This document shows, piece by piece, positions 887 through 37,654 of a DNA stretch of 64,000 bases. Origin of the DNA: Pseudomonadota bacterium. Its GTDB lineage: Bacteria > Myxococcota_A > Polyangia > Fen-1088. The notes beneath the pieces are model-generated. The model was not told where the DNA came from. It searched no databases and saw nothing but the letters and a program-made list of their open reading frames with translations. Positions within the stretch are counted from its first letter, which is position 1. The number at the start of each line of letters is the position of its first letter. The stretch lies in assembly GCA_017881315.1 (NCBI GenBank), contig JADGRB010000001.1:12564-76563 (forward strand). The letters run 5' to 3'. Position numbers and translations under genes: made by a program.

Positions 887-11371
<10,485 letters not shown>

Positions 11372-16133: not shown

Positions 16134-16388
16134 ACCGGGCCGGTGTGGAAAAACCAACAACGGGCTGTCAGAAATCAAACAGATCGCCGGGGGTCACCCA
16201 TGAAAGCGGTTAAATTTCGCTAGCTTAGATGGCAAGGACGGTCTGGTACTCCGCTTGCTCGGTTGGGGAAGACCATGCCAGGCCTCGTTTCAGCCGCTGT
16301 CTCTCCGTCGCTGGTCGGTTCGTCCTCGTCGTCGGGCGCCGCTCTGCGGCTTCCCGCCGGGGTGGCCCGGCGTTCTTCGCTCTCCCGG

Positions 16389-17024: not shown

Positions 17025-17033
17025 GGGGACTTC

Positions 17034-17747: not shown

Positions 17748-19717
17748 TGTGCGGCATCGCCGGCGCGCTGGCGCTGAGGCAGGACGCGCCGCCGCCAGCG
17801 GGGGCTGCCGAGCGCTTCGCGGCGGCGATGGTTCACCGGGGCCCCGACGGGCACGGGTTCTTCCAGCGTGGCCCGATCGCGCTGGCGCACCGGCGTCTGG
17901 CCATCATCGATCTGTCGGAGGCGGGCCGGCAGCCGATGACCAACGAGGACGGGCAGATCGCGATCGTCGTCAACGGCGAGATCTACAACCACGCCGAGCT
18001 GCGCGCCGAGCTGGTCGGCAAGGGGCACCGGTTTCGCAGCGGCAGCGACTCCGAAGTGGTGGCGCATCTTTACGAAGAGGTGGGCGCGCGGGTGCCCGAG
18101 CTGCTGCGCGGCATGTTCGCCTTCGCGCTTTGGGACGCGCGCACGGCCACCTTGCTGTTGGCCCGCGACCGATTCGGTGAAAAGCCGCTCTTCTACGGCG
18201 AGCGTCCGGATGGTTTCGTGTTCGCCTCCGAGCTGGGGGCGCTGCTGGCCGACGAGCGCACGCCGGCGACGCTTTCGCTCCCAGCCCTCGACGCCTACCT
18301 CGCGCTCCAGTACGTGCCCAGTCCCGACACCATCTACGAAGGCCTCAAGAAGTTGCCGGCGGGGCACACCCTCGAGCTCCGCTGCGGCGGCCGGCCGTTG
18401 GTCCGCCGCTATTACCGCCCCAGCTTCGAGCCGACGCTGGCGCGCCTCGACGAGCGGGAGGCGGCGGCGCGGGTGCGGCAGACGGTCGAGAAGGCGGTTT
18501 CCGACCGGCTCATGTCGGACGTGCCGCTGGGGGCTTTCCTATCGGGCGGCATCGATTCGTCGATCGTCGTGGCCTGTATGGCGCGCGCGCTCGGCGCGCC
18601 CGTGAAGACCTTCTCGGTGGGGTTCTCGGAGGGCGGGCGCGCCGACAACGAGCTGCCCTTCGCGCGTCTGGTGGCGGAGCGCTATCGGACCGACCACCAC
18701 GAGCTGATCGTCGAGCCCGACATGATCGGCCTCCTGCCCGACATCGTTCGCCACCACGGCGAGCCCTTCGGCGACACCTCGGCGGTGCCCACCCGCTACC
18801 TCTGTGGGCTGGCGCGACAGCACGTGACGGTGGCGCTCTCGGGCGACGCCGCCGACGAAGCCTTCGGCGGCTACCGGCGCTACGTCTGGGCCCACGTCGC
18901 CGATCTGCTGCTGCGTCTGCCGGGCCCCGTCCGGGGCCTGGCCGCGCGGGCGCTGGGCGCCGTGCCCGGCGGTCCGGCTCGCTGGCTGCGCGAGTACGGT
19001 GCGCGGTTCTCCGCCGACGAGGCGACCCGCTACCTACGCTTCGTCTGTCACTTCTCGGCCGAGGAGAAGGCGGAGATCTATTCGCCGGAGCTCCGGCAGC
19101 GGTTCGCGCGCGACGCGACGGCGGAGGCATTCGCGGCGCGCCTGCAGCGAAGCGGCGCCCCCGACGTGGTGGGGCGCCTGCAAGAGCTGGACTGCGACAC
19201 CTACCTGCCCGACGACATCCTCGCCAAGGTCGACATCGCCAGCATGAGCCACGGCCTCGAGGCGCGCGCCCCCTTTTGCGATCACGACGTGGTCGCGCTG
19301 GGCGCCTCGTTGCCGGGGCGCCTCAAGCTTCGGCGCGGCAAGGGGAAGTACATTCTCAAGCAGGCCTTCGCCGATCTGGTGCCACCCGAGATCCTCGCCC
19401 GTCGCAAGAAGGGGTTCGCGCTGCCCATCGGACGCTGGCTGGCGGGCCGCCTCCACGGGTTCGCCCGCGAGCTGCTGCTGTCGTCGGAGGCCCGGCAGCG
19501 GGGGCTCTTCGTGCCGGCCGCGGTGGAGACGCTGCTCGACCGCCACCGCGCCGGCGAAGACCACGGCGAGCGGATCTGGAACCTGATGGTGCTCGAGACC
19601 TGGTTCCGACAGATGATCGACGGCCGCGCCGCGTTCGTCCGCGAGATCGCCGTTCGCGCCGAGGCCATCGCGCGCGACGGGGCCGCGCCGATGGCGAAGA
19701 GGAGCGCCGCTTCATGA
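17747..19717 (+). CDS. asnB: Asparagine synthetase (glutamine-hydrolysing) family amidotransferase
   Basis: A class-II glutamine amidotransferase N-terminus needs Cys2. GTG at 17747 gives MCGIAG, whereas the track start TTG at 17741 gives MVVCGIAG. PP-loop motif SGGIDSS. The start overlaps the upstream TAG by 1 nt. Confidence 0.85.
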   Translation: MCGIAGALALRQDAPPPAGAAERFAAAMVHRGPDGHGFFQRGPIALAHRRLAIIDLSEAGRQPMTNEDGQIAIVVNGEIYNHAELRAELVGKGHRFRSGSDSEVVAHLYEEVGARVPELLRGMFAFALWDARTATLLLARDRFGEKPLFYGERPDGFVFASELGALLADERTPATLSLPALDAYLALQYVPSPDTIYEGLKKLPAGHTLELRCGGRPLVRRYYRPSFEPTLARLDEREAAARVRQTVEKAVSDRLMSDVPLGAFLSGGIDSSIVVACMARALGAPVKTFSVGFSEGGRADNELPFARLVAERYRTDHHELIVEPDMIGLLPDIVRHHGEPFGDTSAVPTRYLCGLARQHVTVALSGDAADEAFGGYRRYVWAHVADLLLRLPGPVRGLAARALGAVPGGPARWLREYGARFSADEATRYLRFVCHFSAEEKAEIYSPELRQRFARDATAEAFAARLQRSGAPDVVGRLQELDCDTYLPDDILAKVDIASMSHGLEARAPFCDHDVVALGASLPGRLKLRRGKGKYILKQAFADLVPPEILARRKKGFALPIGRWLAGRLHGFARELLLSSEARQRGLFVPAAVETLLDRHRAGEDHGERIWNLMVLETWFRQMIDGRAAFVREIAVRAEAIARDGAAPMAKRSAAS

Positions 19718-19747
19718 TGCGAATCTTGCATCGTCTGATCGGACGGG

Positions 19748-20680
19748 GTGACGCCCCGTGAGTCCCCACCCAATTGCGGCGCGATGTCGTTGTCGCTATC
19801 GTACGCGCCCAGGAGCCATCTCATGAGCACGGCCCCACAAATACAGCCGATGCAGCAGGCTGAATCGGAGAAGCGGTTCGCATTCGGCAGGAACTGGCAC
19901 CGGTACCTCCGCGGCCTCGACGAGGCGGCGATCGCCGAAGCCGAGCAGTCTCTCCGGAACTGGCTGGGCGATCTTTCGGGCCTTCGATTTCTCGACATTG
20001 GTTGCGGCAGCGGCCTGTTCAGCCTGGCCGCGCGGCGGTTGGGGGCGATCGTCCACTCGTTCGACTTCGATGCGAACTCCGTCGGTTGTGCCGAGGAGCT
20101 GCGGGCCCGCCACTTTCCCGGCGACCCGAACTGGACGATTCAGCAGGGCTCGATCCTCGACCGAGCTTTCGTGGACAGCCTCGGCCAGTTCGATTTGGTC
20201 TACTCGTGGGGGGTCTTGCACCACACCGGGGATCTGAACACCGCGCTCGATCACGCGGCGCGTGCCGTGGCGCCGGGCGGTCGGTTCTGGATCGCCATCT
20301 ACAACGATCTCGGTCAACTGACGAACGCCTGGACCGCGATCAAGCGCGCCTACGTCGCCAACGCGCTCAGCCGGAGCCTGGTGGTCGGAGTCTTCGTGCC
20401 GATGTTCTTCCTGGGCAATCTGCTGGTCGACCTGGTTCGTCTGCGCAGCCCTCTGACACGCTACCGCGAGTACCGAAAGTCCCACCGGGGGATGTCGCGC
20501 GTGGTGGACTGGTTCGACTGGCTGGGGGGCTATCCCTATCAGCCGGCGCGGGCCGAATCGATCTTCGATTTCTTCCAGCAGCGTGGATTCACGCTCCTCA
20601 AGCTGCGCACGGTGAAGGACTGGGGTAACAACCAGTTCGTCTTCCGCCGCGACGGTTCGGTCGCCGCGGTTCCAGGCTGA
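19748..20680 (+). CDS. Class I SAM-dependent methyltransferase
   Basis: Motif I FLDIGCGSGLFSL and post-I DFD. An alternative start is ATG 19823 (MSTAPQ). The antisense 582-aa ORF 19796..21544 is R/G junk. Confidence 0.7.
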   Translation: MTPRESPPNCGAMSLSLSYAPRSHLMSTAPQIQPMQQAESEKRFAFGRNWHRYLRGLDEAAIAEAEQSLRNWLGDLSGLRFLDIGCGSGLFSLAARRLGAIVHSFDFDANSVGCAEELRARHFPGDPNWTIQQGSILDRAFVDSLGQFDLVYSWGVLHHTGDLNTALDHAARAVAPGGRFWIAIYNDLGQLTNAWTAIKRAYVANALSRSLVVGVFVPMFFLGNLLVDLVRLRSPLTRYREYRKSHRGMSRVVDWFDWLGGYPYQPARAESIFDFFQQRGFTLLKLRTVKDWGNNQFVFRRDGSVAAVPG

Positions 20681-20757
20681 CCTCGCAGGGTGAAGCGCGG
20701 CGCCGCCGCGGGTCGCCGTCTCCAGGCTAACGCGCGGCCGCGCCGCGAGTCGTCTTC

Positions 20758-21831
20758 TCAGTCGTGGCTCGCCCTGCGCAAGCGCTCGATGATTTCGAGA
20801 TAGCGAGGCAGCACCGCCTGGAGCGAGTAGGCCGTTTCCACACGGGCCCGACCTGCCGCGCCCACGCTCGCCCTCAACGCCGGGTCGCCAATCAGCTCGA
20901 CGAGGGCGCTCTCCCAGGCCGACCGATCGGGGGGCAGGAAACCGTCGACGCGGTCGGTGACGACCTCGGCGTTTGCGCCGACCGCCGAGGCGACCCCCGG
21001 TCGCCCCAATGCCATGTACTGCAGGAGCTTGAAGGCGCATTTGCCACGGGCGTATGGCTCGTCGGGCAAGGGCATCACCCCGATATCGATGCGGGCCAGA
21101 TCCTCGACCTCGGTGTGGGGATTCCAGGGGATGTACTCCGGGCGCAACGACGCGAGCGAGCGCGGCGGCGGCCGATCGGCGATGGCCAGGAATCGTGCCC
21201 CGGTTCGCTCCAGTGCGCGGGCGATCCCCTCCTTGGCCACCGCCAGCTGGCGATAGTTTCCGTGCGTCCCGGTCCAGCCCACCACCACGTCGGCGCCCCG
21301 CGTCTGCCGCGTCGGCTGGGGGCGAAAGCGGTCGATATCGATGACCGTGGGAATGATCGTGGTCTTCGCCGGTGCGGCGACGAAGTCCGCCAGCGTCCGA
21401 TTCCCCGCCACGACATGATCGACGAGATCGACCATCGATCGAATCTTGGAGCGTCCGAACAGGTTCAGGTAGATGGCATCGTCGAAGTCGAAGACCGAGC
21501 GCCGCCCGCGCGTGACCGCGCGCTCGAGCCAAAGGAACGGCCACTCGAACATCGGCCGGTAGACGTAGATGATGTCGTCGTCGCGGAGACCGCCGAGCTG
21601 ACCCAGGCGGGAGGCCAGCGCGGCCGGATAAAAAAGGGGCCGAAAGCGACGCCAGGGGAGCGGCAGCCGGGTGTCGCCGTACACGCTGGGGTGACAGGCC
21701 CGCGTTTCACATCGCACGCCGGCGGTTTCGAGGGCGCGGGCGATGGCGAATCCGCGCACGCGGGCGCCGGGAGCGTCCCGGCCCGGCAAGAAGAAGACGA
21801 CACGGCCCTCGGCGCTCAGGCGCCGATCCAT
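20758..21831 (-). CDS. Glycosyltransferase family 4
   Basis: RVVFFLPGRDAPGARVRGFAIARALETAG (N-domain) and a C-terminal EX7E region (GRPGVASAVGANAEVVTD). Start taken at MDRRL (21831). An alternative upstream Met is at 21861. Confidence 0.75.
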   Translation of the reverse strand: MDRRLSAEGRVVFFLPGRDAPGARVRGFAIARALETAGVRCETRACHPSVYGDTRLPLPWRRFRPLFYPAALASRLGQLGGLRDDDIIYVYRPMFEWPFLWLERAVTRGRRSVFDFDDAIYLNLFGRSKIRSMVDLVDHVVAGNRTLADFVAAPAKTTIIPTVIDIDRFRPQPTRQTRGADVVVGWTGTHGNYRQLAVAKEGIARALERTGARFLAIADRPPPRSLASLRPEYIPWNPHTEVEDLARIDIGVMPLPDEPYARGKCAFKLLQYMALGRPGVASAVGANAEVVTDRVDGFLPPDRSAWESALVELIGDPALRASVGAAGRARVETAYSLQAVLPRYLEIIERLRRASHD

Positions 21832-21929
21832 AGCGCACTTCCTCGGGCGTCGCCACGACACGCCGGTCGTTCGCGTCGGCAGGACGATCGCTACAAGAAT
21901 CCCATCGACACGCTCGCATTCTGCTAGCC

Positions 21930-22769
21930 TTGCCGCCCGTGATCAAACTGGAGCGAGAGCTCGAGATCGCGTGCCGCGCGGCCAGGGAGGCGGGGCGCGT
22001 GATCCTCAGCCACTACGGCAACCCGGATATCGTCGTCGAGACCAAACCCGACGCGTCGCCGGTCACCATCGCCGACAAGGCCGCGAACGCCACTGTGCTC
22101 GAGCACCTTCGTGCCGCCTTTCCCGACGACGCATTCCTCAGCGAGGAGTCTCCGGACGACGGGTCGCGGATCGGCCGACGGCGCGTCTGGATCATCGACC
22201 CGCTCGATGGCACCCGGGACTTCTTGGCACAGACGGGCGACTTCTCGGTGCACATCGGCCTCACGATCGACGAACAGCCGGTGCTGGGCGTCGTGTACCA
22301 GCCGGTGCGGCAGGCGCTCTACCACGCCTGCCAGGGCGCGGGCGCGTTCCTCGAGAGCAGCGGCACCAGCACCCGGATCACCACCTCGCAGAGACGCGAG
22401 CCCAGCGAGCTGCGGGTCGGCATCTCCCGTCTCAACCCAGACGAGGGGCTGGGCAAGTGCCTGGCCGCCTCTGGCCTGGCGCCGCGCGCCGTGGCGATGG
22501 GCGCCTCGGTCAAGCACATGGCCCTCGCGCGCGGCGATCTGGACGCGGTCTTGAACCTATCGCCCGCCGAGCAGGAATGGGACACCTGCGCGCCCCAGGT
22601 GATCCTCACCGAAGCGGGTTGCACCGTCAGCGACGGCGACGGTCATCCCTTCCGGTACAACCAGCCGGATCTCTACCGGCGGCGCGGCAGCGTGGCCAGC
22701 AATGGTCTCTGCCACACCCTCATGCTCCGCGTCATGGCCCCCTGCCTGCCCGAGATTCCGCCGCCCTGA
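21930..22769 (+). CDS. Inositol-monophosphatase/CysQ-family phosphatase (3'(2'),5'-bisphosphate nucleotidase-like)
   Basis: Motifs EESPDDG and WIIDPLDGT, plus a C-terminal WDTCAPQVIL (the IMPase-fold metal/substrate motifs). TTG/GTG start region. Confidence 0.7.
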   Translation: MPPVIKLERELEIACRAAREAGRVILSHYGNPDIVVETKPDASPVTIADKAANATVLEHLRAAFPDDAFLSEESPDDGSRIGRRRVWIIDPLDGTRDFLAQTGDFSVHIGLTIDEQPVLGVVYQPVRQALYHACQGAGAFLESSGTSTRITTSQRREPSELRVGISRLNPDEGLGKCLAASGLAPRAVAMGASVKHMALARGDLDAVLNLSPAEQEWDTCAPQVILTEAGCTVSDGDGHPFRYNQPDLYRRRGSVASNGLCHTLMLRVMAPCLPEIPPP

Positions 22770-23061
22770 CGGTGCCGGGCCGGGTGCAGCGCTGCGCGTG
22801 GGCGCAATCGCCTGCCATCCATGAAGGTCGATGTGGCCCAGCGCAACGGCCGGCCCGGCATCCGCTGTCGACCCTTCGGCAACAAGCCTGAAACAATGCG
22901 AGGCCCATGACCCAGGACGGCGACGGCCACAGTCAGCAAATTGACGAAAGGCATCCGACCCGCATCCTAACCTCACCGTCGGTATTACACCTTGAGCGAG
23001 AGCCGAATGAATGGCATTGTAGGCACCCCTACCTGGGCGGGCTGGTGGTGGCAATAAAGTA

Positions 23062-24225
23062 ATGATTAACGGCGCGACAGAGTTGAGTCCGGTGGCCAGA
23101 GCGGCGGCCGTGTTTTCGGGTCCGGTCAGCGTGGCTGCTCGAACCACGGTGCCCGTCATCCTCCGCGCGACCGAGGCGGAGGCGACGGGCGCGCGGATGC
23201 AGGTGGGCGGCATCCGGGTCGTCGAACGCGCGATTCGACAGCTCGCCCGTCTGCGCGACGTTCATGTGGTCGTGGTCGACGATGGGAGCATCCCGCTGCC
23301 GCGCCGACTGCCTCGGAACATGGAGCGACGGACCATCGCGGCCGACGGCGACAATGGCGATCTAGAGGCTGGGATCGATCGGCTCCGCACCGAGCTCGGC
23401 CCGGAGACGGCGATCGTCGGCGCGGACGTGGTCTGGTTGCAGCCGGGGCGTTTCGACAAGGGGACGCGGGTGGTCGACGCGGCCTCGCGCCGCGCCGCTA
23501 ACGACTCGGTATTTTGGGAGGTGGAGCGCGAGACTGTCGGTCTGGTCGACCGGATCCTGAACCAGAAGATCTCGTCGCGCTTGACGCGGCTCCTCTTGGT
23601 CCACTTGCCCGTCGCCCCGGCGTTCGTGACGCTGCTGGCGGGATTCATCGGACTCTATGGCGCTTTGCTGGTGGCCAGCGGGACCTGGCTGGGCGTCGTC
23701 ACCGGGTTCGCCGTGCTGGAGGGTTACGTGATCCTCGACGGCTGCGCGAACGACCTGGCGCGCGTGCGCTTGCACCAGACGGCGCTGGGGGCCTGGCTCG
23801 ACACCGCGGTCGGCGATTTCGTCAACGTCGTGATGGTCTTGGCCGTTGGTCTCGGACTCTGGCATCACGGCGGAACCATCCTCGACATGAAGATGGCGCT
23901 GGCCGCCGCGGGCATGACGTTGTTCTACGTGGCGGTGTGCTACCGCGAGCTGATGCGGCAGGGCGAGGGCGACGTGATGAAGCTCCGCTGGTGGTTCGCC
24001 TACGGCCAGGCCCTCAAGAACGTGAGCGGCGCGGGCAGCAATTCGATCAAGAATGTGATGCTCCTCGGCCGGCGGGACTTCGTGATCCTGCTGGCGATCG
24101 GGCTGGCGTATTTCGATCAGCTGCCGGTGGTCCTGCTCTACCTGTTGATCATCGGCATCGTGCGCGCCGCGGGTGCGCTCGGCCAGCTGCTCACGCCCGA
24201 CTGGAGAGTTCGCCCACCCGCGTGA
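23062..24225 (+). CDS. Fusion protein: degenerate NTP-transferase-like domain plus CDP-alcohol phosphotransferase (6-TM)
   Basis: N-terminus ILRATEAEATGARMQVGGIRVVERAIRQL aligns to the NTP-transferase ILAAGxGTRM...GGKPLIE pattern, but the GxG loop is replaced. The C-terminal half carries the CDP-OH-PT signature DGCANDLARVRLHQTALGAWLDTAVGDFVN (D-G-x2-A-R-x8-G-x3-D-x3-D) within multiple TM helices. Confidence 0.75.
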   Translation: MINGATELSPVARAAAVFSGPVSVAARTTVPVILRATEAEATGARMQVGGIRVVERAIRQLARLRDVHVVVVDDGSIPLPRRLPRNMERRTIAADGDNGDLEAGIDRLRTELGPETAIVGADVVWLQPGRFDKGTRVVDAASRRAANDSVFWEVERETVGLVDRILNQKISSRLTRLLLVHLPVAPAFVTLLAGFIGLYGALLVASGTWLGVVTGFAVLEGYVILDGCANDLARVRLHQTALGAWLDTAVGDFVNVVMVLAVGLGLWHHGGTILDMKMALAAAGMTLFYVAVCYRELMRQGEGDVMKLRWWFAYGQALKNVSGAGSNSIKNVMLLGRRDFVILLAIGLAYFDQLPVVLLYLLIIGIVRAAGALGQLLTPDWRVRPPA

Positions 24226-24821
24226 CCGCACCGGGTCCCCGGTCGGTGATCGCGATCGACGGTCTCGACGGCAGCGGCAAGTCCACTTTCGCGGTCGCGC
24301 TCGCCGCGGCCGTCGAAGCCGCGGGCCAGCCGGCGGTCGTGTGGCACGTCGACGATTTTCGCCGGACCGTCGACTTCGAGGGCCAGAGCGCCGAGGGCGA
24401 GGCCGCGCTCTACTACGATCGCTACTACGACTTCTCCACGCTCGACGGTGCGCTGGCGTCGTTCCTGAAGGGCGGCCCCGACGGCGCCATCGCCCTGCTC
24501 GAGGGCGTCCTCGTGCTGCGCGCGCGCCTTCCGGCAGGAACCCCTTTGATCGTCCTGGAGGTCAGCCCGGACGAGGCGCGCCGGCGCATCCTCACCCGCG
24601 ACCGGGCCAAGGGCCGAACGGACCAGGAGATCGTCCGCCGGATGGAACGCCGCTATTTCCCGGCGCAGGCGCGTTACCGCGCCGCATTCGATCCCGTCGC
24701 GCGCGCCGACGTCCTGGTCGACAACGACGACTGGACCCGCCCGCGCGTCCTGCGACGGGCCGACGGGCGTTTTCCGCCGCAGGTCGTCCCCGGCCTCGAT
24801 CGCCTGCTCCCGGTGGGTTAA
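24222..24821 (+). CDS. P-loop kinase of the uridine-kinase/phosphoribulokinase-like family
   Basis: Walker A IAIDGLDGSGKST and a C-terminal RRILTRDRAKGRTDQEIVRRMERRYFPAQARY (UK/PRK-family lid). GTG start overlaps the upstream TGA (GTGA, 4-nt overlap). The longer track ORF from 23514 is upstream out-of-frame read-through. Confidence 0.65.
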   Translation: MTAPGPRSVIAIDGLDGSGKSTFAVALAAAVEAAGQPAVVWHVDDFRRTVDFEGQSAEGEAALYYDRYYDFSTLDGALASFLKGGPDGAIALLEGVLVLRARLPAGTPLIVLEVSPDEARRRILTRDRAKGRTDQEIVRRMERRYFPAQARYRAAFDPVARADVLVDNDDWTRPRVLRRADGRFPPQVVPGLDRLLPVG

Positions 24822-24822
24822 C

Positions 24823-25899
24823 GTGGCGCCCGAGACGATGTCGGCCTCGGTGGTCATCGCGGCGAGCCGCGCCGAATCGCCTGGCGCGGCCATGACGATC
24901 GCCGGCCTGACGGTGATCGATCGCGCCCTCAAACAGCTCGCGCAGTCGCCCGAGACGCGGGTGGTGGTGGTCGGCGACGGATCGATCGCGCTGCCGTCGT
25001 CGCTCGCCCCCAACGTCGAGGTTCGGACCGTCGCCGACGGTGCGGCGGCCGCCGCGATCGCCGAGACCGCCCGCGAGCTGGGCGCGCCCGTGATCGGGGC
25101 CGACCTGGTGCGCGTCGATCGGGCGCGGTTCGACGGAGGTTTCCGGGTCGTCGACGAGCCGAGCCGTCGGGTGGCGGAGGACGCGGTGTTCGCGGCGCTC
25201 TATCGGCCCGATCTCGGCTTCGTGGCGCGCCGCCTGAACAAGCCCCTCTCCGTGCGCCTCACTCGATATTTCCTGGTGCGCACGGCCATCACGCCCAACC
25301 AGATCACGCTCTTCGCGGCGCTCCTGGGCATCGCCGGCTGTGGGCTGGTGGCGTCCGGGCAGTTCGCCGCGATCTGCCTGGGATTCGCGCTCGAACAGGT
25401 CCAGTCGATCCTCGACGGATGCGACGGGGAGCTGGCGCGGGTCCGATTTCAGCAGTCAAAGCTGGGGGCCTGGCTGGACACCTTCGTCGACGACGTGCTC
25501 AACGTGCTCATCACGGTCGCCACGGGCGTCGGGCTCCACCGCGCCGGCGCCGGCAGCTGGGCGGTCGCGGTCGGCGTCGCGGGGGCGGCGATGCTCATCC
25601 TCTCGAATCTCATCATCATGCGCGACATGCGCCGCCAGAGGGCCAGCGGAGACCTGATGGACATGGTCTGGTGGTTCTCCGGGGGGCGCCGCCTGGCAGA
25701 GCTGTCGGGCGGCGGAAAACCCAGCATCGGGAGCATTCTCTTCCAGCTCGGTCGCCGCGATTCGGCCCTCTTTCTGTGGTTGATCTTTGCCCTTTCGGGC
25801 GCCCTGGTGCTGGTGCTGGTGATGGCCGCGATCATCGCCCTGTGCTGGTTCGTCGCCAGCGTCATCCAGCTTTTCACGGCCCCCGACGCGGCCACCTGA
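24823..25899 (+). CDS. Second fusion protein: degenerate NTP-transferase-like domain plus CDP-alcohol phosphotransferase (paralog of 23062..24225)
   Basis: N-terminus [28 protein letters not shown] (GxGxR replaced by SRAES). CDP-OH-PT signature [30 protein letters not shown]. Six or more TM helices. GTG lies 1 nt after the kinase TAA. An alternative ATG is at 24838. Confidence 0.75.
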
Positions 25900-30364: not shown

Positions 30365-31012
30365 ATGAAGCGGCGACCCTTGCAGTCGGATTTCGAACGC
30401 GAAGCGCTTCCCCACCTGGGCGCGCTCTACGCGGCCGCGCTGCGGATGACGCGCAACGAGAAGGACGCCGAGGATCTGGTCCAGGACGCCTTGCTGCGCG
30501 CCTATCGCTTCTTCGACACCTTTCAGGCCGGCACCAACTGTAAAGCCTGGCTGTTTCGCATCCTCACCAACGTCTTCTGCAACCGCTACCGCGAACGGGA
30601 GCGGGAGCAGGTGGTGCTGTCGGAGGCGGAGTCCTCGCCCGCCAACCTCGAGCAGTTCCTGGGCGGCACCGGCGCCGATGCGCGCGACACCGAGACCGCG
30701 CTTTTGGGACAGATGGTCTCGGCGGATGTCGAGAAGGCGCTGGCCGCTGTGCCGTCCGACTTCCGGATGGCGGTGATCCTGGCCGATCTGGAAGACTTCT
30801 CCTACAAGGAGATCGCCGAGATCATGGACTGCCCGGCCGGTACTGTGATGAGCCGGCTCTTCCGTGGCCGCAAGATCTTACAGGGTCTCCTGCGTGACTA
30901 CGCGGTCGAGCAGGGGATCATCACCCCCGAGACCCCGCCAGGGACCGCCGGGGACGCACCGGTCGATCTGGCGGCTTACCGGCGGCGCCGGGATCGGGGG
31001 GAGGCCTCGTGA
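30365..31012 (+). CDS. ECF (group IV) sigma-70 factor
   Basis: Region 2 [20 protein letters not shown] and [17 protein letters not shown]. Region 4 [38 protein letters not shown]. Confidence 0.85.
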
Positions 31013-31767
31013 TCTGCGCCGAGGTGGATACCTGCGTCCAGACCTACGTCGACGGTGAGCTGGCCGGGGTCGATCGGGAGGTCGTCGAGCGGCACCTGGT
31101 CGGCTGTCCGGCCTGCGCGGGGCGCGTGCGGCTCGAGGCGCGGTTCAAGGCGGCGGTTCGCGCCCACCTCCCGCGACCCGAGGTGCCCTTGGCGTTCCGG
31201 CTGCGCATCGAGAAGTCGCTGGCAACGCAGCCGATCGCGCCACTGCGCTGGCCGTGGCTTTCGTATCCGAGGCTGGTTCCGGCGGCGGCCGCCCTGGTGC
31301 TCTTGGTCGGCATCACCGGTACGGTTCGGGAATCCCAGTCTGGCCTGCTGCAACAGGCTCAGCGCAGCTACCGTGCCGAGATGCCGATGGATATCACCGG
31401 CTCGGATTGTGGGTCGATCGCGTCCTGGTTTCGCGGCCGCCTCGATTTTTCGATGCACGCCCCGGCGCTCGGCGGTGGCGCCACCTGTCAAGGGGGCCGC
31501 CTGGTCAACGTCGGTGAGCGTCCGGCCGCGTACCTCATCTACCGCATGCAGACCGGTCACCGGGTCGCGTTCCTGGTCTTCGATCCGCGCGATCAGTCGT
31601 TCGAGGCCCCCGAGCGCCGGGTGGTCAACGGCCGTGAAATCTACGTCGAGGCCGGCCCCGGCATTTCGACCGCGACCTATCGCGACCGGGGCCTCGGCTA
31701 CGTCGTGACTTCGGACATCGACGAGGACGCGCTGACCCGCCTGGTCACCACCTCTTTCGGCCGCTGA
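31009..31767 (+). CDS. Zinc-binding (ZAS-type) anti-sigma factor with one TM segment
   Basis: HLVGCPAC (Hx3Cx2C) close to the N-terminus. TM helix [21 protein letters not shown] start overlaps the sigma-factor stop (GTGA), typical of sigma/anti-sigma pairs. Confidence 0.7.
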
Positions 31768-31889
31768 GGCCAAAGATTCTGTTAGGATAGGCGGTCCCTC
31801 GCGCGCGGATCAACGGGCATACGCCCGGTGGTCTCCAACGCGTGGGGGTTGGGAACCCCAGCCGGGATTCCCACTTCCCAGGAGGCGAG

Positions 31890-34385
31890 ATGGCCGACCG
31901 AATCGCGCTGTGCATCGAACCCGACGCCGCCACCGCGGATCAGCTCCGCCGGTGGCTCGAGCCGCACGGCTTTGAAGTCAAGAACATCCCCAACGGAGAC
32001 GAGGCGATGGAGTGGGGTCGCACCACGCGACCGGCGGTCATCATCCTCAGCGTCGAGCCCAAGAAGGTGGGCTACGGGATCTGCAACAAGCTCCGCCGCA
32101 GCCCGAGCCTCCGGGAGGTTCCGCTGGTGCTGATCTCGGCCGAAGAGACCCCGGCGACGTTCGAACAACACCGGAAGCTGAAGTCGCGCGCCGACGAGTA
32201 TCTGCTCAAGCCGCTCGACGGCAAGGACCTGCTGGACAAGATCGGCGGGCTGCTCAAGGTGCACCTTCCGGCCGGCGATGACGACGAGGTGCACGAGCTG
32301 GACGCCGATTCGGACATCGTTCTGGCCGAGGACGACGACATCGACATCGTGAGCAGCGCCTCCACCGACAGCGACGAGGAGCAGACGATCGCGGTCGATC
32401 CGAGGAACAGCTACGGCGCCGTGGTCGAGAGCGCGAACCCGCGCGACACCTCCGAGGAGCGCCTCCTGCCCGACGCCAGCCCGCCCTTCGAGGGTGAGAA
32501 GTTCGATCCCGAGACCCAGGCCGCGTTCGCGGCGCTCGAGGCCGGCTCTCCCGAGGGCGGCTCGGCGTCGCAGCACGCGAACGACATGGTGGACTTGCGG
32601 AACCTCTGGACCGACGACGATCTGCCGCCGAACCTGGGGTGGGAGCAGCCGCCCGCCGGCAAGGAGGCGAACCAGGGCTGGACGGGCGACGTGCTGGCCG
32701 CCACCAACGAAGCGGCGCCGGGGGAGTTCGATCCGGATTCCTATCGGACAGGTGAGACGCTCGGTCCGGAGCCGATCATGTCGGATGCCCTGCTCGCCTC
32801 GGCGCTCTCCGGCGCGGGCGAGGCCGAGGTGCCGCCGACACCCGACGAGGTCGAGTTCGAGGACGTCGCGACCGAGGCTGGCGGGCGCTCCATTTCAGAC
32901 TTCGGGCTAGCCGCTGCGGACGACACGCGCGCGCGGGAGGCGGAGGCCCGCAACGTGGAGCTGCAGGCGCGGATTCAGTCGCTCGAAAACGAGCGGCAGA
33001 CGCTGCGCAAGGAGATCGAAGAGGCGCGTGAGCGGTTCACGCAGTCGGCCACCTTCTCCAAGGAACGCGAGTTCCTGGGTCTGCGCGAGATCATCAACAA
33101 GAAGGAGAAGGACATCCTGGATCTGCGCGACGCGCTGGATGCCAAGGAACGGCAGATCCTGGACCACAAGGACAAGATCCGGGAGCTGGAGCGGGCGCGG
33201 CGCGATCTGGAAGAGAGCACCATCGGGTTCGAGCAGAACCTGGTCGCGGCCAACGAGCGGGTCGCGGAGCTGGTGCAGGACCGGGAGAAGTCGGGCGAGC
33301 GCGAGAAGGGATTCAAGGCGCGGCTCGACGACGCGCAGGTGGAGCTGCGCAAGGCACACGACGAGATCGACGCGATCAAGAAGCGCGCCATCCAGGACGA
33401 GGTGCGGGCGCGTTCGGATGCCGATCGGTTGCGCGGCGAGATGGAGACCCGCCTGGCGGAGCTGGAGGAGGCTCACCGGGCCGAGGTCGCGCGCTTCTCC
33501 GACGAGCACGGTCAGGCGCTGGCCTCCGCCGAGGCGGCGCGGCAGACGGAGCTGGCGCGCAACGAGGTCGCGCACCGGGCCGAGGTGGAATCGCTGCAGC
33601 GGCGACTCACCGAGGAGCAGGCCCAGGCCGGAGAGCGGCTGTCGGCCGAGGTGTTCAAGCTCCGCAAGGAGCACGAAAAGGCGATCGCGGCGGCGCGTGA
33701 AGAGCAGGCGATCCAGCTCGCGTCCGAGCGGCAATCCTACGAGGCGCTCACCGAGCAGAAGGAGCGCGACCACCGCAACGAGATCCTGGGGATGCGCCGG
33801 CGGCACGAAGAGGAGGCGACGTCGGCCGAAGAGCGGCGCCAGCGCGATATCGCCGAGCAGGAAGGGCGGCGAATCGCCGAGCTGGAGTCGGCCGAGACCC
33901 GGCGCCGCACCGAGCTGACGACGCGGGACGAGGAGCATCACGTCCGGGTCACCGAGATCGAACGTCGCCACCTGACCGAGAAGACAGACCTGACCGAGAA
34001 GCACCGCGCCGACTACGACCAGGCGCTGGGGCGTGCGGCCCGGGCGGAGGGCGAGCTGGCGGCGCGCGTGCAGGAGATCGAGCAGGCCTACCGCCGGCTG
34101 GCCGGCCTCGAGGCCGACGTCGACGAGGCGCGCGCCGAGCTCGGCAACCGCGAGGTGCGGCTGGCGCAGGGGCGTGACCGGATCGCGGAGCTGGAGGCGA
34201 AGGTCGCCGACTACGAAGATCAGATCGTGCGCGCCTTCCAGCGCATCCGAGCCGACGACAAGACCACCGAGAAGACCCGGCGGGCGCTCTCGGTGGCGTT
34301 GGCCCTTCTCGACGAGCGGGTCAGCGCCCCGCCGCCGGGCCCCGCGCCTCGGGCCGCCCCGGACGACGCCGAGCTCAAGACCTGA
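31890..34385 (+). CDS. FrzS/AglZ-like protein: N-terminal pseudo-receiver domain plus long coiled-coil
   Basis: Receiver fold RIALCIEPD...AVIILSVEPKK...LVLISAEE...EYLLKP, with Ser where the phospho-accepting Asp should be. It is followed by an acidic linker and ~500 aa of heptad-rich coiled-coil (ELQARIQSLENERQTLRKEIEEARE...). RBS GGAGGCGAG precedes the ATG at 31890. Confidence 0.75.
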   Translation: MADRIALCIEPDAATADQLRRWLEPHGFEVKNIPNGDEAMEWGRTTRPAVIILSVEPKKVGYGICNKLRRSPSLREVPLVLISAEETPATFEQHRKLKSRADEYLLKPLDGKDLLDKIGGLLKVHLPAGDDDEVHELDADSDIVLAEDDDIDIVSSASTDSDEEQTIAVDPRNSYGAVVESANPRDTSEERLLPDASPPFEGEKFDPETQAAFAALEAGSPEGGSASQHANDMVDLRNLWTDDDLPPNLGWEQPPAGKEANQGWTGDVLAATNEAAPGEFDPDSYRTGETLGPEPIMSDALLASALSGAGEAEVPPTPDEVEFEDVATEAGGRSISDFGLAAADDTRAREAEARNVELQARIQSLENERQTLRKEIEEARERFTQSATFSKEREFLGLREIINKKEKDILDLRDALDAKERQILDHKDKIRELERARRDLEESTIGFEQNLVAANERVAELVQDREKSGEREKGFKARLDDAQVELRKAHDEIDAIKKRAIQDEVRARSDADRLRGEMETRLAELEEAHRAEVARFSDEHGQALASAEAARQTELARNEVAHRAEVESLQRRLTEEQAQAGERLSAEVFKLRKEHEKAIAAAREEQAIQLASERQSYEALTEQKERDHRNEILGMRRRHEEEATSAEERRQRDIAEQEGRRIAELESAETRRRTELTTRDEEHHVRVTEIERRHLTEKTDLTEKHRADYDQALGRAARAEGELAARVQEIEQAYRRLAGLEADVDEARAELGNREVRLAQGRDRIAELEAKVADYEDQIVRAFQRIRADDKTTEKTRRALSVALALLDERVSAPPPGPAPRAAPDDAELKT

Positions 34386-34427: not shown

Positions 34428-34537
34428 GGGCCCCCCTCGCTACGCCCGGCAAAGCCGGGCTACGCTCGCGCTTCGGGTGGGTGTCCGGCGTCCCCGGCGG
34501 GGGGGTACCCGAGGACGCCCGATGCGCCTGGGCGGTT

Positions 34538-34566
34538 GACGTTCAGACGGCGCGCCGTCTAACGTC
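34538..34566. promoter_or_regulatory. 29-bp near-perfect palindrome 12 bp upstream of the pgsA-like start codon (candidate operator or 5'-UTR hairpin)
   Basis: GACGTTCAGACGGCG|CGCCGTCT-AACGTC. The arms are reverse complements except for one missing G. It is preceded by TTGAC. Confidence 0.35.
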
Positions 34567-34578
34567 CCCCCGAGCTCC

Positions 34579-35631
34579 ATGCGCGTCTCGGCGAATCAGG
34601 TCACGGGTCTCCGACTGGTCGCGATGCCGTTCGTGGGCGCCACCCTCTACGGCAGCCTGCGGACCCAGATCGTGGGCGTCATCGTCGGCACGCTGATCGG
34701 TCTCACGGATCTGGTCGACGGTTACCTGGCGCGCAAGCACGGACCGACGGTGCTCGGGTCGCTGCTGGATCCGGTGGCCGACAAGATCTTCATCGTGGTC
34801 TGCTACGGCTGCTTCGTTTCGCGCGGCAGCATCCCCTGGTGGGTGGCCGCCGCGATTTTTTCGCGCGAGCTGCTGGTCACCGTGCTGCGGTCGAGCCTGG
34901 AGCTCGGCGGCCGCCGCCTCCCGAGCTCCGGGATCGCCAAGGCCAAGACCTGGATTCAGATGCTCGGCTTCGCGTTCCTGGTCCTGATTCCGATCGTCGG
35001 CCCCTCCGGCCTGCGGCTGCTGTTTGCGATCCCGCTGGGCTTCGCGCTGCTGGTCGTGGCCATCGGCCGGGTCTTCGCCCGTCGGCGCTGGCGCGGGTTC
35101 GAGATCGCGGCCGCGACGCTGGTCCCGTTCGTGGCGGTGTCGTTCTGGGGCCCGACCGCCGCCCACGTCCTGCTCATGGTCGGGGTGGTGTTCATCACCT
35201 GGTACAGCGCGCTCGACTATCTCGCGGTCGGGCTGCGCTACCTCCGCGGCGCGCTCCCCCAGCGGGGGCTGCACTGGCTGCGTCTGGCCGCCGGCGGCCT
35301 GCTCCCGATCGTCGCGCTCGCCCTGCTGGCGACGGGCCGCGTTTCGACCGTCACCATCATCGTGCTCCTGTCGAGCGTCATGGCGCGCGGCGCCCTCGAC
35401 AACTTCGCCGCCCACCGCGGCGTCGCCGATTTTTCCTGGGCGGCCAGCCTGTGGGCCGAAGCGGCGCTCCTCGCGGCGGCGCTGGTGTTCCCAGCGCCCG
35501 GGAGCGCCCTGGCCCTAGTGGCCGCGCTGATCGGGGTGCTGGAGACCCTGCGCAGCCTGGGCCAGTACCTGCGGGCGCCGACGGCGGAACGCGCCGCCGG
35601 CGCCGCTGCGCCTAGGAGGGCGTTGCCGTAA
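34579..35631 (+). CDS. CDP-alcohol phosphatidyltransferase (PgsA-like) with a ~170-aa extra C-terminal membrane domain
   Basis: Signature DLVDGYLARKHGPTVLGSLLDPVADKI. Six or more additional predicted TM helices follow the ~180-aa catalytic core. Confidence 0.75.
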   Translation: MRVSANQVTGLRLVAMPFVGATLYGSLRTQIVGVIVGTLIGLTDLVDGYLARKHGPTVLGSLLDPVADKIFIVVCYGCFVSRGSIPWWVAAAIFSRELLVTVLRSSLELGGRRLPSSGIAKAKTWIQMLGFAFLVLIPIVGPSGLRLLFAIPLGFALLVVAIGRVFARRRWRGFEIAAATLVPFVAVSFWGPTAAHVLLMVGVVFITWYSALDYLAVGLRYLRGALPQRGLHWLRLAAGGLLPIVALALLATGRVSTVTIIVLLSSVMARGALDNFAAHRGVADFSWAASLWAEAALLAAALVFPAPGSALALVAALIGVLETLRSLGQYLRAPTAERAAGAAAPRRALP

Positions 35632-35684
35632 GGCAACGGTGAGCGAAGCGAACCATGCCCGACGCCGTGCCGCCCGGAGGCGGC

Positions 35685-36839
35685 CTAGCCCCGTTTCTTC
35701 CGTGCGTGGAACGCACTGACGATGCGTTCCGCGGCGACGTAGGTCCGGCTGTAAGCGAGCGGCAGGCGGGCGGGCGCGCCCGCCTGGGCGTCGGCTTCGA
35801 TCGCCTGCTCGACCCGCTTCGCGAAGGCCCGATCGCGGCAGAAGAGGTCGACCTCCTCGTAGTCCCCGTGCGACAGCTGCGTGAAGTTCGCCGAGCCGAG
35901 GTCGACCCATTCGCCGTCGCCCACGATCGCCTTGCCGTGCACCATCCGCGGGTGCAGGACGATGCGCAGGTTTTCGGGGCTGCCGGTCCGGCGCAGGAGC
36001 TCCGCGCAGGTGAAGAGGTTCAGGTCGGCGCCGACGTTGGAGCGCGCCGCGGTCAACATGGTCACCTTCACGCCCCGCTTCACGGCCGCCACCAGAATGT
36101 CGGTGGAGGCGGGGTCGCCCAGGTAGGCCATCTCGATCGTCAGGCGTTCGCGGGCGCTCGCGATGAGGTCGAAGCGCTCCGCCGCCAGGCCCTTCCGATC
36201 CTGGCTGCGCAGGGTGTGCAAGAGGTAGTCGTACGACCGCGTCGGATCGAAGGGCGCCCGCCCTTCGTAGCGATCGGCCAGCCGGGTCGCGGCGCCGCCG
36301 CCGCTGATCTCGACCATGAAGTCGACGTTCGTGTCGCGGAAATCGTCGCCGATTCCCATCCCGCCCAGGATCACCACCTCGTCGTCGAAGACGTAGAGCT
36401 TGGCGTGATCGAAGCGCTTGTTGTCGACGAACTTCACGTTCGGGTGGGCGACCAGGACGTCGGCGAGCGGGCTGGGGCTCTGCCGCAGCGAGCCCCAGCG
36501 GCCGTAGAACGTCATGAGGGCCCAGGTCTGCAAGCGGGCCGGAAGGTCGATCTTCTTGTGAAAGAAGCTCTGCTTGGTCGCCTCCAGGTGCTCGTAATGG
36601 CGGCCGACCCGATCCTTGTAGATGGTCACCGCGACGCCGCGATCGGCGGCGCTCAGCAGCGCGCGCGCCAGGGATTGCCCGGTGTCGTCGTCGCGCCACT
36701 CGAAGCAGCGGAGCATGACGCTGCGCCGGGCCTGGGCGATCCGGCGCAAAATGCGGTCATAGGCGGCCACCCCGTTCGCCAGGAGGTGGAAGCTCGGTGC
36801 AGCCTCCGCACCGGTGACCGGCCATGAAATGAGCGACAC
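35685..36839 (-). CDS. Phospholipase D / cardiolipin-synthase family protein (two HKD motifs)
   Basis: HKD motif 1 HAKLYVFDDEVVILGGMGIGDD. HKD motif 2 HGKAIVGDGEWVDLGSANF. Confidence 0.8.
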   Translation of the reverse strand: MSLISWPVTGAEAAPSFHLLANGVAAYDRILRRIAQARRSVMLRCFEWRDDDTGQSLARALLSAADRGVAVTIYKDRVGRHYEHLEATKQSFFHKKIDLPARLQTWALMTFYGRWGSLRQSPSPLADVLVAHPNVKFVDNKRFDHAKLYVFDDEVVILGGMGIGDDFRDTNVDFMVEISGGGAATRLADRYEGRAPFDPTRSYDYLLHTLRSQDRKGLAAERFDLIASARERLTIEMAYLGDPASTDILVAAVKRGVKVTMLTAARSNVGADLNLFTCAELLRRTGSPENLRIVLHPRMVHGKAIVGDGEWVDLGSANFTQLSHGDYEEVDLFCRDRAFAKRVEQAIEADAQAGAPARLPLAYSRTYVAAERIVSAFHARKKRG

Positions 36840-36895
36840 GGGCGGCGAAATCTAGCTTAGGTGGTGGGTGGCTGCAATGCGGGGTCCCCCGAGGT

Positions 36896-37654
36896 CTAGG
36901 GACGGCTGACCTCGGCGGCCCAGGCGCGGTAGCGGGTGAAGAACGCCCGCCGCTCTTCCGCCCGGAGCGGGATCCAGGCTGTTGCCGCATAGCCGCAGAG
37001 CCAAAAGAAAAGAACGTCGAAGGTGTAGGGCCGCGCCAGGATGAACGCCGCGGGCGGCGTAAAGATGAACCCGGTGATGACCATCCGGACGTACCACTGC
37101 ATGCGCCGGGCCCCCCGGTGGGTCATGTAGGGGATGGGCAGGAGGTTCATCAGGGCGAAGGCCGGAATGAGCAGATCGCCCAGCAAGAACCCGATCTCGC
37201 CTCGAAAGAAGAACCGCGAGAGCACGAAGGTCATCGACGCGTAGCCGCTCACCGTGCGTGGCAGGCCGCAGTACATGAGCGGATCCCCCAGCTTCGCCAC
37301 CGTGAAGAGCGCCTGCCGGACGGTGGCGCAGGTGACGATCACCGCCAGCAGCACGATCCCAGCGGTGGTGTGTCCGCCGCGCGCGTAGACCGCGTAGACC
37401 ACGATCCCCGGCACGATCGCCTGCACGAAGTGGTCGGTCGCGGTGTCGAGCTCGCTGCCGAACTGGTTCGACGTCTTGGTCGCCCGTGCCACCATGCCGT
37501 CGAGGGAGTCACCGAAGATATAGCCCACCATCAAAGCAAAGCCGGCGACCTGGAGCTGGCCGACCAGGACGAAGTGAATCGCCGCCACGCCGCCCAGCAG
37601 GTTGACGAGCGTGAAGAGATCCTTGACCCCGAAGGGACCGATGTTCCAGCGCAT
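36896..37654 (-). CDS. CDP-alcohol phosphatidyltransferase, phosphatidylserine-synthase-like (PssA type)
   Basis: FTLVNLLGGVAAI...GDSLDGMVARATKTSNQFGSELDTATD matches the Bacillus-type PssA/Pcs architecture. About 250 aa. Confidence 0.7.
   Translation of the reverse strand: MRWNIGPFGVKDLFTLVNLLGGVAAIHFVLVGQLQVAGFALMVGYIFGDSLDGMVARATKTSNQFGSELDTATDHFVQAIVPGIVVYAVYARGGHTTAGIVLLAVIVTCATVRQALFTVAKLGDPLMYCGLPRTVSGYASMTFVLSRFFFRGEIGFLLGDLLIPAFALMNLLPIPYMTHRGARRMQWYVRMVITGFIFTPPAAFILARPYTFDVLFFWLCGYAATAWIPLRAEERRAFFTRYRAWAAEVSRP

Follow-up and report, generated by a model that had tools for sequence, protein, structure and literature searches.

Three genes, here designated P1, P2 and P3, that are predicted to be involved in phospholipid headgroup transfer lie side by side in a 64,000-nucleotide stretch of DNA (the window) from an uncultured Polyangia bacterium (assembly GCA_017881315.1, contig JADGRB010000001.1). 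P1 and P3 encode CDP-alcohol phosphatidyltransferases (the CDP-AP family), and P2 encodes a protein of the phospholipase D (PLD) superfamily (Table 1). P3 is located upstream of P2 on the same strand, with a gap of 56 bp. Because the window is 64-73% G+C, which makes long spurious open reading frames (ORFs) common, the genes were called by the G+C content of third codon positions (GC3). The GC3 values of P1, P2 and P3 are 0.93, 0.92 and 0.90, respectively. This is a strong coding signal, and the three ORFs are found exactly where a first-pass annotation of this DNA had placed them. The main subject of the analysis is P1, in which a PgsA-type transferase is joined to about 170 additional hydrophobic residues.

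Table 1. Positions of genes, motifs and segments in the window (TM, transmembrane helix)
Feature	Position	Strand	Remarks
P1, 350-aa PgsA-type CDP-alcohol phosphatidyltransferase	34579..35631	+	12 predicted helices; ORF, GC3, PF01066, AlphaFold2
P1 residues 1-142, catalytic core TM1-5	34579..35004	+	
P1 CDP-AP signature DLVDGYLARKHGPTVLGSLLDPVAD, residues 44-68	34708..34782	+	
P1 residues 143-191, helix pair of high hydrophobicity with Arg-rich turn ARRRWRG	35005..35151	+	present in all family members
P1 residues 192-222, helix with TWYSALDYL, likely canonical PgsA TM6	35152..35244	+	Y214, probable equivalent of S. aureus PgsA Y181
P1 residues 229-332, four-helix C-terminal bundle, sequence orphan	35263..35574	+	invariant R235, P243, L273, D274, W287, Y330
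Sigma-70-like element TTGACG-N18-TAACGT	34536..34565	+	ends 13 nt before P1 start codon; read from the sequence
P2, 384-aa PLD-superfamily protein	35685..36839	-	two HKD motifs, no TM segment
P2 first HKD motif HAKLYVFD, residues 145-152	36384..36407	-	
P2 second HKD motif HGKAIVGD, residues 301-308	35916..35939	-	followed by GSAN
P3, 252-aa PssA-like / archaetidylserine-synthase-type CDP-alcohol phosphatidyltransferase	36896..37654	-	
P3 CDP-AP signature DSLDGMVARATKTSNQFGSELDTATD, residues 49-74	37433..37510	-	invariant in 38 homologs
HAD hydrolase	16263-17024		
MobA/IspD-like cytidylyltransferase	17034-17747		
Asn-synthase-like amidotransferase	17741-19717		
S-adenosylmethionine-dependent methyltransferase	19748-20680		
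GT4 glycosyltransferase	20758-21861	-	
CysQ/IMPase-family phosphatase	21930-22769		CysQ 184 bits, cutoff 229
DIPPS-like CDP-AP paralogs	23062-24225 and 24823-25899		each with ~150-aa soluble N-terminal domain
P-loop kinase-like ORF between the DIPPS-like paralogs	~24228-24821		

Family assignment and catalytic core of P1

P1 and P3 match the Pfam family CDP-OH_P_transf (PF01066) with 93 bits (residues 4-145) and 38 bits, respectively, and P2 matches PLDc_2 twice and PLDc once. Membership of PF01066 was judged by the gathering threshold of 22 bits together with the family signature D-x2-D-G-x2-A-R-x7-12-G-x3-D-x3-D on TM2-TM3. Both the signature and the score are found in P1, P3 and a third ORF of the window, 24823-25899 (45.6 bits). 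The family calls of the first-pass annotation (PgsA-like, two-HKD PLD/cardiolipin synthase-like and PssA-like) hold at this superfamily level from Pfam and motifs. The best NCBIfam matches of P1, P2 and P3 are pgsA (TIGR00560), ClsB (NF008427) and pssA (TIGR00473), with 75.5, 78.1 and 66.3 bits against equivalog cutoffs of 109.1, 281 and 107, respectively. Because no protein of the trio reaches its cutoff, the specific enzyme names used below are inferred.

The P1 signature has the form D44-x2-D47-G-x2-A-R-x7-G60-x3-D64-x3-D68, and D44, D47, G48, A51, R52, G60, D64 and D68 are invariant in 63 P1 homologs. The Asp motifs are properly aligned. Residues 1-142 align with PgsA of Staphylococcus aureus (SaPgsA; 7DRJ) and of Escherichia coli (b1912) at 28-32% identity, the TM2-3 loop of P1 being shorter by one residue (x7). 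In SaPgsA, the CDP moiety is bound by N5 and R65 and the alpha-phosphate by K135, the 3'-phosphate of the glycerol-3-phosphate (G3P) headgroup is held by K83, R110, R118, K137 and Y181, and T138 bonds the 2'-OH (PMC8640168). These roles were mapped onto P1 via a HMMER alignment, in which N6, R52, K69, R96, R104, K121, K123 and T124 of P1 correspond to N5, R65, K83, R110, R118, K135, K137 and T138 of SaPgsA, respectively. All eight residues are invariant or nearly so in the 63 homologs. P1 is most likely a phosphatidylglycerol phosphate (PGP) synthase, because all four catalytic Asp residues and the mapped CDP- and G3P-binding residues of SaPgsA are kept. In the proposed mechanism, the four-Asp two-metal site on TM2/TM3 would transfer the phosphatidyl group from CDP-diacylglycerol (CDP-DAG) to G3P, and K69, R96, R104, K123 and probably Y214 would hold the 3'-phosphate of the headgroup. 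Homologs of the P1 type carry inconsistent names, namely PgsA, cardiolipin synthase and generic family member.

Architecture and conservation of the additional helices

Canonical PgsA proteins have ~180-190 aa and six helices, whereas P1 has 350 aa and 12 predicted helices, with a probable ~50-aa hydrophobic insertion before a TM6-like helix and a four-helix bundle after it. The extra ~170 residues are hydrophobic throughout. Along residues 1 to about 320, GC3 in the P1 frame lies at 0.93-0.97, and the C-terminal half therefore shares the frame of the transferase domain. A separate ORF or a frameshift for this half was ruled out by the continuity of the GC3 frame and by full-length homologs. 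At E <= 1e-5, 225 homologs of P1 were found; among the 120 matches listed, lengths range from 322 to 386 aa and most cover 95-100% of the query, and the named homologs come from Polyangia or 'uncultured Myxococcales' metagenome-assembled genomes. On the GC3 values and the homologs listed, the extension pointed out by the first-pass annotation is real, in frame and lineage-wide. T207, W208, Y214, R235, P243, L273, D274, W287 and Y330 are invariant, and S210, G271 and N275 nearly invariant, across two subfamilies that are ~30% identical in this region.

Residues 165-350 of P1 were compared exhaustively by phmmer with 1.84 billion cluster representatives, of which only 37 matched. As examined, these are proteins of ~350-377 aa with the same architecture or gene fragments beginning inside the transferase domain; the short matches were ruled out as stand-alone homologs of the extension on this ground, and no stand-alone form was seen among the representatives. 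On these searches the extension domain is rare. When 19 extension-only sequences were compared with Pfam and NCBIfam at E <= 10, noise alone (DUF996, SLATT, NapE) was obtained, except that two of the 19 weakly match pgsA (E = 0.032). A PDB profile match to lumazine synthase (E = 2.7e-4, 23.9 bits, profile residues 37-97) was taken as spurious because that protein is soluble and the extension is a membrane domain. Foldseek found nothing (best E = 2.4), and no significant match to PgpA, PgpB/PAP2, PgpC or lipid flippases was obtained in Pfam, NCBIfam, PDB or Foldseek. The C-terminal half is thus neither a separate ORF nor homologous to a known independent protein. Literature searches returned no account of a bacterial PgsA with 12 helices.

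An AlphaFold2 (AF2) model of P1 was built from the 63-sequence alignment, with a predicted local distance difference test score (pLDDT) of 89.3 and a predicted template modelling score (pTM) of 0.86. The helices of the model comprise residues 5-23, 27-54, 58-82, 87-109, 118-167, 172-190, 192-222, 229-252, 257-279, 286-303 and 308-332. The model is confident, as is that of the extension folded alone, with a pLDDT of 87.1 and a pTM of 0.76. With a 12-TM topology and the N-terminus inside, 17 Lys and Arg residues of the loops lie inside vs 3 outside.

The position of TM6 within this series of helices was examined with the pgsA profile, positions 4-174 of which align to P1 residues 5-216. TM6 of E. 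coli PgsA ends with TLWSMLQYL (at residue 164), and the P1 helix 192-222 carries TWYSALDYL, which shares the TM6 signature T..S...Y[LF]. The TM6 sequence of S. aureus PgsA, TILSGIEY(181)F, which is consistent with all residue numbers given in PMC8640168, has the same form, and Y214 of P1 is the probable equivalent of Y181. In a splice test, constructs of TM1-5 followed by the native next helix or by helix 191-226 were scored against TIGR00560 and PRK10832. TM1-5 of P1 alone scores 76.5 and 56.0 bits, respectively, and the same values are obtained with the native helix 143-170, whereas joining to helix 191-226 gives 82.8 and 63.7 bits. For P0140, the corresponding scores are 87.9 and 49.7 bits for TM1-5, 87.6 and 46.8 bits with the native helix, and 88.9 and 53.6 bits with the equivalent of helix 191-226. 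Splicing in helix 192-222 therefore gains 6.3 bits (TIGR00560) and 7.7 bits (PRK10832) in P1 and 1.0 and 3.9 bits in P0140, and the native region 143-191 of P1 adds 0.0 bits to the pgsA profiles. The effect is modest, yet consistent across these profile scores, and the spliced P1 construct at 82.8 bits is still below the pgsA cutoff of 109.1. The TM6-motif residues T207, W208, S210 and Y214 are invariant within both subfamilies.

Because of the splice scores and the invariant TM6-motif residues, the favoured layout of P1 consists of TM1-5, a hydrophobic hairpin at 143-191, the true TM6 at 192-222 and the bundle at 229-332. Helix 192-222 is probably the canonical TM6, and residues 143-191, within which the most hydrophobic segment of P1 lies, are probably an insertion of two helices between TM5 and this TM6. 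The first-pass annotation had described the extra residues as one simple C-terminal domain; on the TM6 signature and the splice scores, a ~50-aa insertion plus a ~105-aa four-helix bundle is the likelier description. Two points weigh against the layout. The reassignment of TM6 depends on gains of only 1-8 bits, and secondary structure assignment of the AF2 model by DSSP gives one unbroken helix at residues 118-167 (window 34930-35079), running through G141-P142-S143-G144 with pLDDT 85-95, where hydropathy and loop charges predict two membrane passes. The unbroken helix fits neither simple hairpin model.

Placement and origin of the four-helix bundle

The AF2 model of P1 superposes on human CHPT1 over 271 residues vs 174 on PgsA. 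In this comparison, made from the predicted P1 structure, the bundle would be placed like TM7-10 of the eukaryotic enzymes CHPT1, CEPT1 and CPT1 (9UET, 8URT). P1 differs from these enzymes in that it is only 13-14% identical to them, is bacterial and has 12 helices rather than 10. Its site is also of the PgsA type (CDP-DAG donor and soluble G3P acceptor), whereas theirs uses CDP-choline and diacylglycerol. In xlCHPT1, TM7-10 form a pseudo-two-fold copy of TM3-6 and overlay TM3-6 of the neighbouring protomer in prokaryotic dimers (PMC10182977), and the solved prokaryotic CDP-APs all dimerise via TM3/TM4 (PMC11696302). The P1 bundle would accordingly occupy the position of the dimer partner in the model, and the favoured description of P1 is the 6+4 plan of CHPT1 plus an insertion. 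Packed on the catalytic unit like TM7-10 of the eukaryotic choline-phosphotransferases, the bundle would most likely be a built-in pseudo-protomer and lipid-facing scaffold, because TM7-10 of the eukaryotic enzymes lie where the prokaryotic homodimer has its second protomer. It would be neither a separate enzyme nor a flippase and may be a decayed second half-unit of a transferase. The CHPT1-like placement, as predicted by the model, is rated higher than this duplication origin.

Such an origin has been proposed for the eukaryotic enzymes, which probably arose via duplication or fusion, with the second unit losing its first two helices, and rare bacterial tandem CDP-APs exist (PMC10182977). 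These tandem proteins (for example InterPro B3T1S3) are likewise single bacterial chains with more than one six-helix-sized block, and it is by this route that a homodimer is proposed to have become a fused pseudo-dimer (PMC10182977). By description both of their units are recognisable as CDP-AP domains, whereas the second part of P1 is invisible to Pfam, NCBIfam and profiles and is without an Asp signature.

An origin of the bundle as a decayed second transferase unit is tentatively entertained for P1, at somewhat less than even likelihood. The superposition on CHPT1 and the published interpretation of that fold speak for it. The TM6 signature T..S...Y[LF] recurs in the last P1 helix (TLRSLGQYL, residues 323-331). 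Composition-matched shuffles contain this signature once with a probability of ~0.004 and twice with one of 5e-6, for a pattern defined post hoc. Along the best hhalign path, which is collinear, GGLLP is matched to GSLLDP and SLW to KTW, and the two TM6-like motifs also pair. A simple internal duplication detectable by sequence was rejected, as no hhalign comparison is significant, the N-terminal and C-terminal halves of P1 giving a probability of 0.1-0.6%. Several results weigh against a duplication origin. With diverse profiles, the extension is not significantly similar to the catalytic unit (P = 0.19) or to the P3 family (P = 0.25), and TM3-5 plus helix 8 against residues 227-336 scores 13.9 vs 11.5 +/- 2.2 in a shuffled-column null (P = 0.12). 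PF01066 is touched by only one of 19 extension sequences (E = 0.68), and Foldseek was negative here too. The TM6-like copy in helix 12 is conserved only in part, and its pattern was set after the data had been seen.

A fuller form of the same idea, which is doubtful on the present evidence, holds that P1 and its ~37 cluster relatives are the prokaryotic counterpart of the eukaryotic architecture. In this form, a PgsA would have been fused to a second unit that then degraded, with TM3'-6' corresponding to residues 229-332 and GGLLP, SW and TLRSLGQYL remaining as relics. The single chain would work as a pseudo-dimer, where the solved prokaryotic CDP-APs are all obligate TM3/TM4 homodimers, and the decayed unit would have become a pocket that handles lipid or product by means of R235, D274/N275 and W287. 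If true, P1 would represent a surviving intermediate stage of the duplication and decay by which CHPT1/CEPT1 are proposed to have evolved.

A lipid acceptor would also give the extra helices a purpose, as in CHPT1, where the acceptor is diacylglycerol. P1 would then be a CMP-forming cardiolipin synthase of the eukaryote/actinobacterial type (Cls_cap) that uses CDP-DAG and phosphatidylglycerol (PG), with the extra helices forming a chamber for the second lipid. Many P1 homologs are labelled 'cardiolipin synthase (CMP-forming)' by JGI, and the NCBIfam profile of that enzyme (ClsA, NF053678) scores 65.8-75.7 bits, near the pgsA score (65.8 for P1 and 69-76 for the splice constructs, all under the cutoff of 240). 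The pgsA profile is nevertheless the better match, at 76% of its cutoff vs 27-31% for ClsA. SaPgsA binds the 3'-phosphate of G3P with four basic residues, and all of their counterparts in the P1 family are invariant, whereas a PG acceptor is without such a phosphate. This phosphate-binding acceptor pocket therefore favours G3P over PG as the acceptor. A Cls_cap enzyme would moreover be redundant beside the adjacent PLD-type candidate cardiolipin synthase, which is linked to P1 even in a distant lineage. The Cls_cap assignment is accordingly regarded as improbable, and PGP synthesis is retained as the likely function of P1.

A fused independent module was considered to be about equally improbable. 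The extra helices would in that case be a PGP phosphatase, a scramblase or flippase, or an acceptor or product site formed by R235, D274/N275 and W287. The invariance of these residues across subfamilies that are only ~30% identical there implies more than passive packing, and in the 12-TM topology the conserved polar residues lie near the cytoplasmic helix ends at the level of the active site. The window is also without a PGP phosphatase gene. On the other hand, the extension has no similarity to PgpA, PgpB (PAP2), PgpC, flippases or other Pfam, NCBIfam or PDB families, it has, among the 1.84 billion cluster representatives, no stand-alone copy such as typical fused enzymes have, and T207, W208, S210 and Y214 are accounted for by a canonical PgsA TM6. 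Nothing links the extension to the flippase or known acceptor-binding module suggested by the first-pass annotation, and the pseudo-protomer and scaffold reading is preferred.

P2, P3 and the genomic neighbourhood

P2 contains two HKD motifs, H145-x-K-x4-D and H301-x-K-x4-D...GSxN, in which H145/K147/D152 and H301/K303/D308 are invariant, as is characteristic of the PLD superfamily. It resembles E. coli ClsB/ClsC in the two HKD motifs, in its size (~380-410 aa), in the absence of N-terminal TM helices (no hydrophobic segment was found in P2) and in having ClsB as its best NCBIfam match; it differs in that the score is far under the cutoff and the PDB searches returned generic PLD folds only. 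Homologs of P2 (n=831) are distributed as those of P1. P2 is a probable cardiolipin synthase of the ClsB/C-like type on its motifs and best match. It would act as a peripheral two-HKD PLD-type phosphatidyltransferase, most likely forming cardiolipin from PG supplied through P1.

The Asp residues of P3 are D49, D52, D70 and D74, with the canonical x8 spacing. Besides pssA, P3 scores 64 bits with archaetidylserine synthase and 40 bits with PIP synthase in NCBIfam, and its closest PDB relatives are the phosphatidylserine (PS) synthase structures of Methanocaldococcus jannaschii (7pow, 7b1k; E ~3e-7). P3 thus shares the signature spacing and the best profile and PDB matches with type-II PS synthases. 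It differs from them in its sub-cutoff score, in a ~70-aa longer C-terminus and in having no adjacent decarboxylase gene. The additional part, relative to minimal type-II enzymes, includes the invariant motifs GLPRTVSG and PIPYMTHRGARRMQ (residues ~130-186). The motif spacer of phosphatidylcholine synthase (Pcs) is longer; Pcs was set aside for P3 because the x8 spacing is canonical and the best matches are PS synthases. P3 homologs (n=364) carry the JGI name PS synthase and are distributed as those of P1. P3 would act as a type-II PS synthase that feeds phosphatidylethanolamine (PE) synthesis via a decarboxylase encoded elsewhere.

Three close relatives (L001-L003) show exactly the same convergent arrangement of P1 with P2 and P3. 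The trio is also retained on long contigs of L005 and L007 (P1 identity 63% and 58%, respectively), where the flanking genes differ, and in L008, where one gene is inserted and the flanks differ as well. The clustering of the trio is not chance, because synteny is kept in these six loci with differing flanks. The gene inserted between the P1 and P2 orthologs of L008 (9087-10727, 546 aa) has no Pfam match. At the distant locus L010, where the extension shows ~33% identity, a P2 ortholog (57% identical) is still encoded two genes away from the 12-helix protein, and no P3 is present; a 314-aa gene beside the PLD gene was ruled out as a P3 relative, being low-complexity and Gly-rich. Three further distant lineages carry the 12-helix gene without lipid genes beside it. 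From the contexts in L010 and these three lineages, the trio is a Polyangia-level module, the P1-P2 link extends further and the P1 architecture is independent of both. In these three lineages, L012 (3435-5024), L013 (3934-6845) and L014 (4691-6043), the 12-helix gene is preceded by genes of 445-529 aa without a Pfam match, and pilM/pilN are near in two of them.

A sigma-70-like element precedes P1 in the window (Table 1), and the pattern TTGAC(G/C)-N17/18-TAAC(G/T)T recurs in front of the orthologous genes of L001-L003, L007 and L008, down to 58% identity. Because the element is conserved in orthologs, it suggests a dedicated P1 promoter with a very short leader and a near-leaderless mRNA. 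A consensus scan for promoters and terminators gave nothing above chance and did not call the P1 element, and three terminator-like matches were intragenic. The promoter spacer contains a 16-bp palindrome without mismatches, AGACGGCGCGCCGTCT (34546-34561). Apart from the window, only L003 has it intact, whereas L001 and L002 show one mismatch. It was set aside as an operator because it occurs only in the closest relatives and inside the spacer.

The genes around the trio encode core functions, namely SecA, an extracytoplasmic function (ECF) sigma/anti-sigma pair, a response regulator with a coiled coil, HflX and RseP, with BamA in L010. Directly upstream of P1 (window 30365-34385) are the ECF sigma gene, a zf-HC2 anti-sigma gene and a gene whose 847-aa product is a response regulator containing a long, charged coiled coil, a block that keeps its position in L002, L003, L005 and L007. 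A giant ORF of 3494 aa (window 887-11371) also has a strong coding signal (GC3 0.91).

The first-pass annotation had counted four CDP-OH transferases within 14 kb. Four genes stand at the family level and span 14.6 kb, one of them with a degenerate motif. A six-frame scan of the whole 64 kb with a relaxed motif found only three intact CDP-AP signatures. The exception is the 387-aa product of 23062-24225, which has no Pfam match even at E = 1 but is a 40%-identical paralog (E = 8e-73) of the 358-aa product of 24823-25899 and matches the DIPPS part of NF041135 with 46 bits. Its signature, LDGCANDLAR...LDTAVGD (D-x2-A-N-x2-A-R ... D-x3-G), has lost the second Asp and lost or shifted the fourth, where the paralog has LDTFVDD; it belongs to the family by paralogy and not by PF01066 membership. 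It is probably a catalytically dead pseudoenzyme paired with the intact 24823-25899. The region 16263-25899 looks like a separate cluster, resembling one for the biosynthesis or transfer of a CDP-activated alcohol.

Least probable of the explanations considered is that the trio is no housekeeping set but serves, jointly with this DIPPS-like/cytidylyltransferase cluster 9-18 kb upstream, a pathway specialised for an unusual lipid: the sub-cutoff scores of P1, P2 and P3, the inferred acceptor of P3, and four CDP-AP genes in 14.6 kb beside a cytidylyltransferase, HAD phosphatase, kinase, GT4 and methyltransferase speak for it, but SecA, the sigma/anti-sigma pair and the response regulator separate the two loci, the trio lies among core genes (HflX, RseP; BamA in L010), the PgsA substrate site of P1 is intact, P1 has a conserved sigma-70-like promoter to itself, and the 12-helix enzyme also occurs alone in other lineages.

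Synthesis of PGP by P1, of cardiolipin by P2 and of PS by P3 is the most economical reading of these sequences. On balance, the trio, whose enzymes resemble ordinary housekeeping ones apart from the architecture of P1, is considered a conserved phospholipid headgroup module of this uncultured Polyangia bacterium, in which the P1 bundle would serve as pseudo-protomer or scaffold. Weighing against this view are the NCBIfam equivalog cutoffs, which none of the three proteins reaches and which bear on the substrates, the absence of Psd, Pgp and CdsA genes from the 64-kb window, and the distant lineages in which the 12-helix gene stands apart from lipid genes.

The pathway to the PG, cardiolipin and PS/PE headgroups is textbook, and the clustering of the trio is a habit of the Polyangia lineage rather than a novel system. 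The novelty lies in the architecture of P1, a PgsA-type enzyme of double size with an intact active site and a conserved, sequence-orphan membrane module, for which the structure prediction gives a placement like that of the accessory bundle in choline-phosphotransferases of animals and yeast. For annotation, the naming of the P1 family is inconsistent and the degenerate paralog at 23062-24225 escapes Pfam. If the pseudo-protomer reading is true, P1 would provide a bacterial, tractable model for the passage from dimeric CDP-alcohol transferases to single-chain 10-TM enzymes, and for what such a bundle contributes, whether stability, lipid access or product hand-off.

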